This document shows positions 5,752 to 22,519 of a DNA stretch of 24,000 bases, in pieces. The notes beneath the pieces were generated by a model that saw only the letters and a list, made by a program, of their open reading frames with translations, was not told the DNA's origin and did no database searches. Origin of the DNA: Methanomethylovorans sp. (GTDB lineage: Archaea; Halobacteriota; Methanosarcinia; Methanosarcinales; Methanosarcinaceae); the NCBI GenBank assembly GCA_014361205.1, contig JACIVZ010000011.1:1-24000 (forward strand), in the 5' to 3' direction. Each line of letters starts with the position of its first letter. The first letter of the stretch is position 1. Position numbers and translations under genes: made by a program.

Positions 5752-6996
5752 TTACACTATTGAAAATGATTTCACTTTATTCATGATCTCTTCCCTTGCT
5801 TCCAGGTCTACAAGAACATGATCAGTATATTTGACAGAATGTACAATTCCTTCCTTGAACAGCCATGAGAGAACTGACATTGAGTTCTCTGAAAAAGGCA
5901 TTGATATTGTTTTCCTTTTCCATACAGGCAAGTTATGTTGTATTGCCTGTTTCAAATCGTCTATTCCTTTTAAGGTCTTTGCAGAGACATAGACAGGATT
6001 AGGAACAAGATATCCTAAAGATTCCATTTTTATATTCAGCTCTTCTTGACTGATGAGATCTGTTTTATTCATCACTGTAATAATAGATGCATGCTGTACC
6101 TGTTGCCACAGAGTATCATGACATGTGAGCAACTTGTCATGCATTACTTCCAGTGGCTCACTTGAATCTACTACAAGCAATATAATATCAGCAAGGAATA
6201 TCTCATTAAGAGTCGAGCGAAAAGCATCAATGAGCCAATGGGGTAAATCCTCTATAAAACCTACTGTATCAGTAAGTATCACTTTACGCCCCATTATGTC
6301 CATAGAACGGGTAACTGGTGCCAGAGTGGTAAACAGCATATTTGCTACAGCCACATTTTCATCCATCAGGGCATTGAATAAAGTACTTTTTCCTGCATTT
6401 GTATATCCTGCAAGTGCAACTACTGAAAATCCGTGAGAATGTCTGAAACTGCGAAGTGATTCATTCTGAATCTGTACATGACTTAGCTCATCCTTTATTC
6501 TAGCTATCCTTCCCTTGATATCTTGCTCATAAGAATCCTCATAGCCTCCCAGACCCATAAATCCTGGTCTTTCCTCTTTTTTCATATGTGATATAACAAT
6601 TCGTGCTCTTGGTATTTCATATTCCAGCCTTGCAAGTTCCACCTGTAATTTGGAACGTCGTGTGGTAGCACGTAGTGCAAAAATTTCAAGGATGAGCTGG
6701 AACTTATCAATAATTTGACATTTGCAGATCTCTGTAATATTGTACAATTGCATGCTACTTAATTCATTGAGAAAAACTACTTTTTCCGCATGAAGTGATT
6801 TTACAGCCTCTGCAAGTTCCTGAACCTTTCCCTTACCTATCTGGTATTTTTTATCCGGATAACGACACTGAATTATCTCCCCAACAACAGAATAGCCTGC
6901 AGCATGAGCCAATTCCTTCAGCTCTGCAAGCTGTCTCTTATTCTTAGACTCATCAGTGCCTTGATTTATCCTCTGTACTATAATCACTTTTTTCAT
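5752..6996 (-). CDS. hflX: GTPase HflX
   Basis: The HflX N-terminal domain is present (MKKVIIVQR...ELAHAAGYSVVG...FALRATTRRSKLQVELARLEYEIPR). G1 is GYTNAGKST and G3 is DTVGF, with NKTD downstream. The ORF track starts at 7032, but the ATG at 6996 has a GAGGAT RBS about 8 nt upstream and gives the usual N-terminus. Confidence 0.92.
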   Translation of the reverse strand: MKKVIIVQRINQGTDESKNKRQLAELKELAHAAGYSVVGEIIQCRYPDKKYQIGKGKVQELAEAVKSLHAEKVVFLNELSSMQLYNITEICKCQIIDKFQLILEIFALRATTRRSKLQVELARLEYEIPRARIVISHMKKEERPGFMGLGGYEDSYEQDIKGRIARIKDELSHVQIQNESLRSFRHSHGFSVVALAGYTNAGKSTLFNALMDENVAVANMLFTTLAPVTRSMDIMGRKVILTDTVGFIEDLPHWLIDAFRSTLNEIFLADIILLVVDSSEPLEVMHDKLLTCHDTLWQQVQHASIITVMNKTDLISQEELNIKMESLGYLVPNPVYVSAKTLKGIDDLKQAIQHNLPVWKRKTISMPFSENSMSVLSWLFKEGIVHSVKYTDHVLVDLEAREEIMNKVKSFSIV

Positions 6997-19032: not shown

Positions 19033-19719
19033 ATGAACATCGAAGAGATCCACAAATTAGGAGCAGAACTTATAGATATACTCTCTCTGGAAACATCACC
19101 TGTCGCAGTACATCTTGTTAAAGCGGGTGAAAAGCTGCCTGAGAATATACTCAGAATTGCCGAAAATACTAGGCATTGTCAGATGGTTGATAATGTCAGA
19201 AGGAATGGCTATCAATTCTATACTTTGCTTGAAGACCATATGTGTAAAGGTGGAGCAGCAGTAATGGGACTTACAGAAATGGGAGAAAAACTAAAAACTG
19301 GAGAAGTATACTATCATCTGAATCATTTTGAATCTCTGGATGCTGCAAAAAAAACTATGGAAAAAGTACCAAGCATAGCAGCACATTCAATAAAAGCTGT
19401 CGTATATTCACCTCTTGAGAAAACTACATTTAAACCAGACATTATTTTAATAATAACAAATCCCAAAAAAGTAATGGAACTATCTCAGGCATTAGTACAC
19501 AAAAAAGGAGGACGCATAAATGCAAGTTTTGCAGGCAAGCAGAGTGTTTGTGCAGACGGTGTAGCTTATCCATACCTTTCAGGTGAAGCTGGCGTGACAG
19601 TGGGATGCAGCGGTAGCCGCAAGTACACTGAAATAAAGGACGATGAGATGATAATAAGTATACCTGTAGACATGCTACCAGAGCTTGTGGCATCTGCAAA
19701 AACGATGTTCAGCAATTGA
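19033..19719 (+). CDS. DUF169-family protein (copy 1)
   Basis: About 228 aa, starting at ATG 19033 with a GGAG RBS about 8 nt upstream. Family motifs are SPVAV.L, TRHCQMV, HMCKGGAAVMGL and CADG...VGCSGSRKYTEI.DDEMIISIP. It is homologous to the ORF at 21815-22519. Confidence 0.8.
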   Translation: MNIEEIHKLGAELIDILSLETSPVAVHLVKAGEKLPENILRIAENTRHCQMVDNVRRNGYQFYTLLEDHMCKGGAAVMGLTEMGEKLKTGEVYYHLNHFESLDAAKKTMEKVPSIAAHSIKAVVYSPLEKTTFKPDIILIITNPKKVMELSQALVHKKGGRINASFAGKQSVCADGVAYPYLSGEAGVTVGCSGSRKYTEIKDDEMIISIPVDMLPELVASAKTMFSN

Positions 19720-20125
19720 AATATAATCCTGAAGATTTTTCATTTGAGTGATTGTGGGACCTTAGTGCCTATGTCAAGTTTGTCACTCAACTATAATCCT
19801 TTCTTTTACTAAAATGAACTTTCCTGATTAGTTACATTATATCTTATGAGAAGAATGTTTTTCTGTAACTATTCCACTAAAAAAATCAAGATAGCTTCTT
19901 GTAGGTAGCATTTTTTTTATTCGTCCTATGAATGCATGGAATGAAAGAGAACCAGAGAAGTCAATGAATCTGTTTTACAGGACATTACTTTCAATGGAAA
20001 AACATATATCATGATTTAAGAATAATAGTTATGTGTCTGTTTTTTATTAAAGAATTGTCAAGCATGATAGCTTAAGAACAACAACTATTGATTGAAATTT
20101 AAGTCACATAAAATGGGGGATTAGT

Positions 20126-21316
20126 ATGAAACGGAGTATACTGATTTTGGGAGCAGGCTATTCTGGCTCGGTAGTAGCCAACATACTTGCCAGAGAGTTT
20201 AGGAAAAAGATAGCAAAAGAGGAATTGGAGATTACTATTCTTGACAAAAATGATATAACTATAAATCAAGGTGGTTTTACTTTTATTCCTTTTGGACTCT
20301 ATACGCCTGAGGAGATCACAATACCTAGAAAGAAAGTTATAAGTCCCAGAGTTAAAACCTTTTTCGGAAAAGATGGTGAAGTAACATTTATAGACCTTAA
20401 GAATAAGGAGGTCATGGTCAGAAGCGATAAAAAATATAGCTATGATTATCTTGTTATTGCAATGGGATGTACAGCTGATATAAATGCAATACCTGGACTT
20501 GCGGATGATCTGAACACTTTCTATACATCAATTGAAGATGCATTCAAAGTGCGAGATCTTGTAAAAAATATAAATAGTGGAAAAGTTGTAGTATGTGTCG
20601 CCTCAATGCCCGTTCCATGTCCAGGTGCACCTGTAAAATTCACTTTTATGCTGGAAAGTTATCTGCGTCATATAAAGAAGAACAGAGATGACGTACATTT
20701 AACCCTTGTTTGGCCCATGGAGCCTATTGGGCCACCTGAGTTTAACAAGCTTGTCACAGAAGAGTTTAAACAAAAGAATGTAGAGATAATTAGGAATTTT
20801 CCACTGTCTATTGTTGACACTAGTAAAAAGGAAATAGCATCAAAGAATGGAGATAAGATAAACTATGACCTTTTGATCACAGTTCCACCACACAAAGCTC
20901 CACAAGTGTTGATAGATTCAGGTCTTGCAGATGAAAAGGGCTGGATATCTGCAGATAAAGCCACACTACATTACAGAGGACCTGCAGGTAGCTATGACAA
21001 TGTATATGTACTCGGAGACCTTGGTCCTGCTGATATCCTTAAAACAGGGATTGGTGCACACTATCAAGCCATCGCAGTGAGCCAGAATCTCAGCAATGAT
21101 ATTTATGGAAATAAAATAAAGACCCTATATATGGGGGAAACTGGATGTCCTATTGTGACTGAACTGGAATCTCCATTCACTAAAGGAAAAGGATACATTG
21201 CAACTTGGAAATATGGAATGCTTCCATCTCCCTTCACAACTACAAATATGGGATGGTTCCTTTACCGCATGTATTATTACATCCACTGGGACATCAGCGT
21301 AAAGGGGATGTTCTAA
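20126..21316 (+). CDS. FAD-dependent sulfide:quinone oxidoreductase (SQR)-like / type II NADH dehydrogenase-like flavoprotein
   Basis: 396 aa. The N-terminal FAD fold is ILILGAGYSGS. VPCPGAPVKF (Cys165) and GETGCPIV (Cys341) sit where the SQR redox cysteines lie. The second dinucleotide-type motif is YVLGD. The C-terminus is aromatic and amphipathic (MGWFLYRMYYYIHW). Confidence 0.85.
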   Translation: MKRSILILGAGYSGSVVANILAREFRKKIAKEELEITILDKNDITINQGGFTFIPFGLYTPEEITIPRKKVISPRVKTFFGKDGEVTFIDLKNKEVMVRSDKKYSYDYLVIAMGCTADINAIPGLADDLNTFYTSIEDAFKVRDLVKNINSGKVVVCVASMPVPCPGAPVKFTFMLESYLRHIKKNRDDVHLTLVWPMEPIGPPEFNKLVTEEFKQKNVEIIRNFPLSIVDTSKKEIASKNGDKINYDLLITVPPHKAPQVLIDSGLADEKGWISADKATLHYRGPAGSYDNVYVLGDLGPADILKTGIGAHYQAIAVSQNLSNDIYGNKIKTLYMGETGCPIVTELESPFTKGKGYIATWKYGMLPSPFTTTNMGWFLYRMYYYIHWDISVKGMF

Positions 21317-21328
21317 GGAGGGAGGATT

Positions 21329-21697
21329 ATGAGAGGCGAAAACAACATAGACAATATATCAGGAATCGAGATTACACCCACAGATGTTGAAGCTGTGTTA
21401 GACCTTATACGAACTGCGGGAATACTACAGAACTATATTAACGATGAAACTGCCCATGGTATTGCACGGCTTTTGTCAGCTGTATTGAAGATAACCAATA
21501 CGATAATTAGCACTGATTTTGTTGACGTGGTGGAAAGAGGGTTCCAGGACCCAGAACTTGACAAAGCGCTCATCAACCCTCCAAAAATTGGAATCGGAAG
21601 TTTGCTGAAGCAGACACAGGATGAAGACTTCCAGAAAGGTATGGGTCTCATGATAGAACTGATTAAAGCATTGGGACGAGCAACAGAAGATATTTGA
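21329..21697 (+). CDS. DUF1641-family protein
   Basis: 122 aa, with an AGGAGGGAGG RBS, starting 12 nt after the SQR-like stop. The C-terminal segment GSLLKQTQDEDFQKGMGLMIELIKALG matches the DUF1641 signature (L.......D...Q.G.G....L.KALG). Confidence 0.75.
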   Translation: MRGENNIDNISGIEITPTDVEAVLDLIRTAGILQNYINDETAHGIARLLSAVLKITNTIISTDFVDVVERGFQDPELDKALINPPKIGIGSLLKQTQDEDFQKGMGLMIELIKALGRATEDI

Positions 21698-21814
21698 AAA
21701 TATTAGCTCTTTTCAAGAGCAAAATATATTATCTTATAATGAATTTCCAACAACACTTGTTAATACTATTCTTTTTTCCTAAAAATGACATAATAATTTT
21801 TAGAAAAGAGATGG

Positions 21815-22519
21815 TTAAATTTCCCTTTTTCTTGCTTTTTGCATTGGTCCTTCGTGTATTATCTCAAGGGCTTCAACAATTTTTTCCAGGTTTGCATATG
21901 GTATTCCAGCCATCATTTCTTCATTTTTAATATCCGTAGACTTGCGACATCCGAAACATCCAAGGCTCATGTTCATTCTACCTGTTTGCAAAGGAATGAG
22001 AGTAGAATCCACACATGTTGCCTGGAAAGCTGCTGTACTGAATGTTTGTCTTCCACCTTCAAAAAAGGTCGCTGCCGGAATAAGCCAGTAGAGAGTTTCG
22101 GGAAGGTCCACAAGGATTACTATATCAGGTTCGAATTCAAACTCTTTCAACGGACCAACAACTGTAGCAACTATACTTCCATTTTCCAATTCAGAACGTT
22201 GGGATATCATATTTGCAGCTGCTTCGGCACATCCAAACATTCCAAGGTTCGCATGGAATTCACCTGATTTTACTTTAGTAGGGATTGGAACCAAACCCAA
22301 ACTTGATGCGCCCACTACACAAGCATGCTTTTCAGCTGGGATAATAAACGATTCACCTTTTCTTGCTCTCATTATGGACTGGCAGTGCCTTATAGTGTTT
22401 TCTGGCTCTGAAAAGCAACGAGGAATATTTTGTCCTTTCCAAACCAATTTAACAGCTACAGGTTCATATTTCAGGCCCAGGATCTTTACAAGCTTATCAG
22501 ATATATCAGAATTCTTCAT
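21815..22519 (-). CDS. DUF169-family protein (copy 2)
   Basis: 234 aa. Motifs are EPVAVKL, IRHCQSI, HACVVGASSLGL and CVDS...LGCFGCRKSTDI.NEEMMAGIP. It is convergent with the SQR-like/DUF1641 pair. Confidence 0.8.
   Translation of the reverse strand: MKNSDISDKLVKILGLKYEPVAVKLVWKGQNIPRCFSEPENTIRHCQSIMRARKGESFIIPAEKHACVVGASSLGLVPIPTKVKSGEFHANLGMFGCAEAAANMISQRSELENGSIVATVVGPLKEFEFEPDIVILVDLPETLYWLIPAATFFEGGRQTFSTAAFQATCVDSTLIPLQTGRMNMSLGCFGCRKSTDIKNEEMMAGIPYANLEKIVEALEIIHEGPMQKARKREI

Follow-up and report, generated by a model that had tools for sequence, protein, structure and literature searches.

The stretch of DNA analysed here, which we call the window, comprises 24,000 nucleotides (nt) of Methanomethylovorans sp., positions 1 to 24,000 of the forward strand of contig JACIVZ010000011.1. 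Its source is GenBank assembly GCA_014361205.1, a 99.85% complete draft of 2.15 Mb in 170 contigs. Two genes on the plus strand are our subject, one encoding a flavoprotein of 396 residues (20126–21316) and the other a DUF1641 protein of 122 residues (21329–21697), with a gap of 12 nt between them. They are bracketed by two genes of the DUF169 family: paralogue a (DUF169a, 19030/19033–19719, plus strand), which ends 406 nt before the flavoprotein gene, and paralogue b (DUF169b, 21815–22519, minus strand), which is convergent with DUF169a. All four genes were found where a preliminary description, made from the letters of the window, had placed them, and a search of the whole assembly gave no further DUF169, DUF1641 or sulfide quinone reductase (SQR)-like gene elsewhere in the genome. 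The explanation that best accounts for the whole, and that we consider reasonably probable, leans on analogy with known complexes: the flavoprotein and DUF1641 genes would form a sulfide-oxidising operon of an SQR-family enzyme and a helical membrane plugin (HMP) protein, with the DUF169 genes not included.

In Pfam terms the flavoprotein is a Pyr_redox_2 protein (E 1.8e-13). The curated profile hidden Markov model (HMM) that it matches best is NF049943, for type III sulfide quinone reductase of the selenoprotein subtype, and the match runs from end to end (E 2.7e-78). Its nearest relatives among solved structures are human SQR (E 3e-23) and the SQRs of Acidianus (3h8l) and Aquifex (3hyv), with NDH-2 enzymes far lower in the same search. 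Cys165 (VPCPGAP) aligns with the catalytic Cys201 of human SQR (VKCAGAP), and Cys341 (GETGCP) aligns with its catalytic Cys379 (TSCP). Both cysteines are invariant in 15 homologues that have 47–86% identity to the window flavoprotein. The GxGxxG Rossmann motif that binds flavin adenine dinucleotide (FAD) is present at residues 7–15 (ILGAGYSGS), and its G9, G11 and G14 are invariant among the homologues. A second GxGxxG, for NAD(P)H, is the feature that separates NDH-2 from SQR. The flavoprotein sequence, which reads VVVCVASMPVPCPGAP, shows no second motif of this kind, and direct reading of residues 153–170 (VVVCVASMPVPCPGAPVK) gives no GxGxxG. The sole candidate for a covalent flavin link, Cys115, varies among homologues. 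The last 22 residues (GW..YRMYYY..W...K) are nearly invariant in the homologue alignment and belong to the most conserved parts of the protein.

Judged by the HMM and PDB matches on which the type assignment is based, the flavoprotein is an SQR-family enzyme and type III-like. An NDH-2 identity was considered and ruled out by the redox cysteine pair together with the missing NADH motif. The preliminary description had already pointed to the two SQR redox positions, to an SQR-like flavoprotein and to an aromatic C-terminus, and these three observations are borne out by the human SQR alignment, by the best HMM and solved relatives, and by the conservation among homologues.

Comparison with studied SQRs shows both likeness and difference. 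Human mitochondrial SQR (PDB 6oi5, 6mp5), the best solved relative, has the matching cysteine pair; unlike the window enzyme, it is of type II, monotopic in the membrane, has no HMP partner and reduces ubiquinone. The type III SQRs of Caldivirga maquilingensis and of Methylacidiphilum fumariolicum SolV (MFUM_v2_0219, PMC10205796) have the two catalytic cysteines and the FAD motif in common with the window protein. The characterised type III enzymes serve quinone reduction in respiring organisms, whereas the host of the window lives strictly anaerobically and has no marker of a menaquinone pathway. The operon of the SolV SQR has TusA and DsrE2 and no DUF1641 (PMC10205796), whereas the window pair has DUF1641.

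The small protein encoded downstream of the flavoprotein matches PF07849 (DUF1641) with 41.7 bits against a cut-off of 21, in its C-terminal part (residues 83–117 of 122). Its AlphaFold2 model is all-helical, with five helices and a mean predicted local distance difference test (pLDDT) score of 78.9. Its invariant residues are concentrated in the loop DPxLD...PP..G, which lies between helices and is followed by the DUF1641 helix. Publications of 2021 to 2026 show that DUF1641 proteins, among them HucM of Huc hydrogenase, ForE of ForCE formate dehydrogenase and Ncp (YjlC) of Bacillus Ndh, form tetrameric helical tubes. These scaffold the oxidoreductase, contact the membrane and provide a path for quinone to reach the enzyme (PMC10017518, PMC8808070, PMC13524794, PMC13433803). 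The name 'helical membrane plugin' for the family comes from PMC13433803 (Nat Commun 2026), where several enzyme classes are served by such tubes and Ndh, in Ndh-YjlC, docks via its C-terminal domain. The preliminary description had held that both DUF families lack a function; this no longer applies to DUF1641 (PMC13524794, PMC13433803, PMC8808070), and it remains correct for DUF169, which is still uncharacterised. The DUF1641 protein of the window is the presumed tube-forming partner of the flavoprotein.

The pairing of SQR and DUF1641 is already published as a genomic observation, and the window pair is a further member: most HMP genes adjoin SQR genes, SQR is probably the ancestral partner, and in these pairs a small DUF1641 gene lies directly beside the SQR-family gene on the same strand, as it does in the window (PMC13433803). 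The emphasis of that paper is on Crenarchaeota and Firmicutes, and neither in its text nor in that of PMC13524794 did we see methanogens, ANME or carriers other than quinones mentioned. The quinone-transporting Ndh-Ncp (YjlD-YjlC) filaments of Bacillus subtilis (PDB 9pxk; PMC13524794, PMC13433803) resemble the window pair in joining a flavoprotein of two dinucleotide folds to a DUF1641 protein. YjlD is a distant homologue of the window flavoprotein (E 2.7e-8), and docking there is via the flavoprotein C-terminal domain, the region that in the window flavoprotein ends in the nearly invariant residues. Ndh-Ncp takes NADH as substrate, has an NADH-binding motif and no redox cysteine pair, and its carrier is menaquinone-7; the window flavoprotein differs from it in predicted substrate, in motif and in cysteines.

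A scan of related loci, with one genome per species, gave 73 loci encoding close relatives of the flavoprotein. A DUF1641 open reading frame (ORF) lies directly downstream on the same strand in every one of the 68 loci that have 3′ flank, in agreement with the statement in the preliminary description that DUF1641 commonly accompanies SQR-like flavoproteins. The gaps between the two genes are 0–59 nt, mostly 0–31 nt, with apparent overlaps where ORF starts were over-called. Of the five loci without DUF1641, four break off within the SQR gene or at its end. The remaining one (L074, on the ANME-1 G60ANME1 contig) carries at about 6001–6600 only an N-terminal fragment of the SQR-like gene (residues 1–183) with no DUF1641 after it, and looks like a decayed copy.

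Within the Methanosarcinaceae the pair is hosted by Methanolobus, Methanomethylovorans, Methanohalophilus and Methanohalobium, and beyond them by ANME-1, Syntrophoarchaeum, Alkanophaga, Bathyarchaeia, Thermoproteota, Altiarchaeales and one genome each of Dehalococcoidia and Planctomycetota. In a maximum-likelihood tree of the flavoproteins the Methanosarcinaceae form one clade, with ANME-1 and the deep-branching Methanomicrobia sequence JdFR-19 beside it. DUF1641 was found in 18 of 61 sampled Methanosarcinaceae genomes, representing 5 of 16 genera, and one genome of the same genus as the window (G016) is without both the SQR-like gene and DUF1641. Methanosarcina acetivorans does not have the pair. 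That the flavoprotein and DUF1641 genes are one functional unit, a two-gene operon, is a conclusion we hold with high confidence.

The DUF169 genes behave otherwise. DUF169 was found in one of the 73 related loci (L008), of which 33 carry about 6 kb on both sides, and the result was the same with both window copies and with an HMM from 115 diverse members. All 61 sampled Methanosarcinaceae genomes have DUF169, including all those without the SQR pair, against the 18 with DUF1641. Among five genomes of other phyla (non-methanogens) that have the pair, and whose completeness is not established, DUF169 was not matched in four. In the window, groEL, hsp20 and clpB lie upstream of DUF169a, and the minus-strand genes next after DUF169b are cfbA, for the nickel chelatase of F430 synthesis, and then fdhD. 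The DUF169 genes are resident neighbours of clpB, cfbA and fdhD and not part of the SQR unit. The preliminary description had proposed a module of all four genes; this is not supported, the adjacency of DUF169 not being conserved elsewhere and the SQR pair of sister genomes standing at a site apart from that of their two DUF169 genes.

These separate sites show how the present arrangement is likely to have arisen. In three genomes of the same genus (G052, G060 and G031) clpB is followed by DUF169a and a convergent DUF169b directly tail to tail, with stops about 100 nt apart, and in G052 and G031 cfbA and fdhD come next after DUF169b. Orthologues of DUF169a (80–83% identity) follow clpB in same-genus genomes. 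The SQR-DUF1641 pair of the same three genomes, and of Methanolobus generally, comes directly behind rpsJ (S10), the last gene of the ancestral-site cluster nusA-S12-S7-EF2-EF1a-S10. The S10 site of the window's own genome (contig C81) is collinear with that of the sisters up to the S10 stop and again from the small ORF that the sisters have downstream of DUF1641, the intervening 1.8-kb segment of the sisters being replaced by 141 nt.

In the window itself, the DNA matches the DUF169 locus of the sisters as far as 19720 and then again from 21828 onwards (blastn), which sets the breakpoints at 19720/19721 and 21827/21828. Between these, the plus-strand segment 20108–21721 has about 80% identity, over a length of 1.6 kb, with the sisters' cassette at the S10 site (the segment after rpsJ). 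It begins only about 18 nt ahead of the start codon of the SQR gene and comprises a ribosome-binding site, the SQR-like gene, the DUF1641 gene and a 3′ hairpin. Because the S10 site of the own genome is empty while the sisters carry the pair there, their DUF169 genes being already adjacent, it is very probable that a cassette of about 1.6 kb, without its old promoter, moved from after rpsJ into the DUF169 spacer of about 100 nt, and that the bracketing by DUF169 genes is recent.

The 387-nt spacer that now precedes the cassette (19721–20107, assigned to neither strand) has no blastn match in the sisters' empty-site or donor-site loci. It has T8 and T6 runs at 19911 and 20040 and short repeats at 19722–19800. 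From their sequence the T runs are likely to be archaeal terminator signals for DUF169a, and the spacer presumably supplies the new promoter of the cassette. A simple pattern search of the sequence ahead of the SQR gene gave no canonical archaeal TATA motif, and when the ends of the moved cassette were searched for direct and inverted repeats, only short ones at chance level came up.

At the own S10 site (L119, G000:C81:1-6000), compared with sister locus L114, the sisters' 422-aa gene after the small ORF is also missing, and homology to L114 resumes at a stretch of 135 nt that is 98% identical and is possibly an RNA gene.

What the pair may do depends on the electron carriers of its host. Methanosarcinales use methanophenazine. 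The menaquinone pathway markers MqnA and MqnD had no match in the own genome, in keeping with the quinone-less host of the preliminary description, and methanophenazine is therefore the only evident carrier. FpoH is found in the own genome with 369 bits, and an HdrE-like frame of 268 aa matches PF02665 with E 0.004 (G000:C92:4512-4817, outside the window). An absence of HdrE from the own genome, taken from a blank for PF02665 at E <= 0.001, was considered and dropped, HdrE being weakly matched throughout these genera of the family. In this genus and several others the HdrE-like cytochrome b lies below the PF02665 cut-off, and automated annotation could misreport it as absent.

The standard potential E0′ is about -270 mV for S0/HS- and about -165 mV for methanophenazine, so that the oxidation of sulfide by methanophenazine would be exergonic and thermodynamically feasible. 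Among the genera with the pair are Methanomethylovorans and Methanolobus, which are known to degrade methanethiol and dimethylsulfide, and the demethylation of these compounds frees sulfide inside the cell. We infer that the intracellular sulfide from methanethiol and dimethylsulfide metabolism is linked to the pair. In ANME-1, SQR genes have been interpreted as serving sulfide detoxification in a comparative study (PMC10134854).

The mechanism that we propose is modelled on Huc-HucM, ForC-ForE and Ndh-Ncp. The DUF1641 protein would form a tetrameric hydrophobic tube, with the conserved DPxLD-PP-G loop at the membrane. The tube would dock the flavoprotein, probably via the aromatic C-terminus of the latter, and would be the path along which a lipid-soluble electron carrier travels between membrane and flavin site. 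At Cys165/Cys341 the flavoprotein would oxidise HS- to sulfane sulfur, as persulfide or polysulfide, and two electrons would pass through FAD to the carrier. The carrier would be methanophenazine, from which the electrons could then go to HdrDE. The likely roles would be the removal of cytoplasmic sulfide, the supply of sulfane sulfur, or both. The parts of this proposal differ in strength. Sulfide is probably the substrate of the flavoprotein; methanophenazine as the carrier we put at slightly under an even chance. More tentative again is the full scheme, in which the HMP tube in methanogens carries methanophenazine and the pair acts as a sulfide:methanophenazine oxidoreductase that feeds HdrDE, including with sulfide derived from methanethiol and dimethylsulfide.

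A number of observations weigh against this interpretation of the pair and of its history. The flavoprotein scores 263.7 bits with NF049943, below the cut-off of 525; the model is of the 'exception' kind for the selenoprotein subtype, and the missed cut-off bears on subtype and not on family. The DUF1641 assignment is based on a Pfam domain of 39 residues and on gene context. A profile search with the DUF1641 protein gave a weak match to ForE1 (PDB 8rqz, E 0.25), of the domain only. A Foldseek search of its monomer model against the PDB gave nothing with E < 2 and only chance helical matches, a monomer fold search being uninformative for a subunit of an intertwined tube. In the literature searched we found no purified or solved SQR-HMP complex, and no biochemical work on such a complex or on any methanogen SQR homologue. 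The clade of the pair also occurs in lineages that possibly have menaquinone (ANME-1 and Bathyarchaeia), and is not specific to methanophenazine. As to the relocation, the two junctions in the window are read from a draft of 170 contigs. Lastly, in a second, independent assembly (L008, contig DAIPJA010000240.1, 2508 nt) DUF169b (82% identity) is joined to the SQR-like gene (85% identity), the two being oriented to each other in the opposite way to the window. This arrangement could be due to one move and an inversion or to two separate moves, which the tree does not separate. It could be a hint, the only one and a weak one, that linkage was selected for and did not come about by chance. The L008 contig was placed in the bin of Gudongella sp. 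(Bacillota); it is clearly of Methanosarcinaceae and almost certainly misbinned.

Among other explanations, the one that survives best keeps the enzyme and turns its direction: in vivo the pair may be a methanophenazine-dependent reductase of (poly)sulfide or elemental sulfur, a side branch of the anaerobic respiration of ANME and methylotrophic methanogens. The hosts are without exception strict anaerobes and have no obvious acceptor of high potential, the chemistry of SQR can in principle run backwards, and elemental sulfur reduction is known in methanogens. Yet the standard potentials given above favour the oxidation of sulfide by methanophenazine, and we regard the reverse direction as unlikely. 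Against it stands also that the characterised SQR-family enzymes, type III included, oxidise sulfide (PMC10205796 and references therein).

Somewhat less likely still is an enzyme that does not act on sulfide at all, either a two-cysteine disulfide or persulfide oxidoreductase (for example of coenzyme M, coenzyme B or coenzyme A persulfides) or an enzyme of the NADH dehydrogenase type that uses the HMP tube. Homologues do bear differing annotations ('NADH dehydrogenase', 'NAD(P)/FAD-dependent oxidoreductase'), models of coenzyme A-disulfide reductase are weakly matched, and the use of HMP tubes by several enzyme classes (PMC13433803) would accommodate it. However, the coenzyme A-disulfide reductase scores are tiny (45 bits, where the cut-off is 579), SQRs provide both the best full-length HMM and the nearest solved relatives, the cysteine pair lies exactly at the SQR catalytic positions, and the GxGxxG motif for NAD(P)H is not there.

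A sulfur module of four genes, in which the cysteine-rich DUF169 proteins would accept or carry sulfane sulfur from the SQR-like enzyme, is very improbable: the genes are adjacent in the window, L008 too has DUF169b beside the SQR gene (in the other orientation) and three DUF169 cysteines are widely kept, but DUF169 is nearly always missing from related loci even by the family-wide HMM, its spread over genomes does not follow that of DUF1641 or of the pair in other phyla, three sister genomes have the DUF169 pair adjacent without the cassette, and oligo-T runs lie between DUF169a and the SQR gene.

The DUF169 proteins remain of interest in their own right. Both are full-length matches to PF02596 (COG2043), with 241 bits for DUF169a and 215 bits for DUF169b against a cut-off of 27, and the two are 34% identical with four cysteine motifs in common. 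The conservation of these cysteines, which the preliminary description had noted in the two copies, extends to the family as a whole, the four being kept in 95%, 95%, 97% and 73% of 115 diverse family proteins. The AlphaFold2 model is confident (pLDDT 92.7, predicted template modelling score 0.90). A search of solved structures with this fold gave no neighbour (best E 0.3, TM-score 0.2), and a search of them by sequence gave no relative. Since both searches are empty, no function can be inferred for DUF169, and the published mentions that we found are gene-context remarks only. The confident model without a PDB neighbour, taken with the three cysteines kept in 95–97% of sequences, makes DUF169 a candidate for a fold not yet solved, in which a site for a metal or cofactor is likely.

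The content of the spacer between the DUF169 genes is variable. In Methanolobus (genus g4), genes for a cysteine-rich DUF1847 protein and a protein of the metallo-beta-lactamase fold lie between the convergent DUF169 genes in the same direction as DUF169b (L120:4397-5647, L121:4264-5517, L122:4355-5605 and L123:4062-5315). As a clue to the function of DUF169b, these neighbours may serve better than the SQR pair does. Two genomes of the same genus as the window, G016 (L116, G016:C1:738000-746000) and G044 (L117, G044:C9:21500-29500), are without DUF169b at this locus, and in G016 an 815-aa gene occupies its place. No sulfur-carrier role is to be assigned to DUF169 from the window locus, and a false lead is thereby removed.

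For the pair itself, HMP tubes are a newly recognised wiring of soluble enzymes to the membrane, so far known only with quinones, and the presence of a strictly conserved SQR-HMP pair in methanogens that use methanophenazine and in ANME-1 offers a direct way to test whether such tubes carry phenazines. The pair also bears on whether the oxidation of sulfide by strict anaerobes supplies their energy chain or serves detoxification only. If the proposal is true, methanogenesis would have an auxiliary electron donor in sulfide, from which sulfane sulfur would also be obtained.

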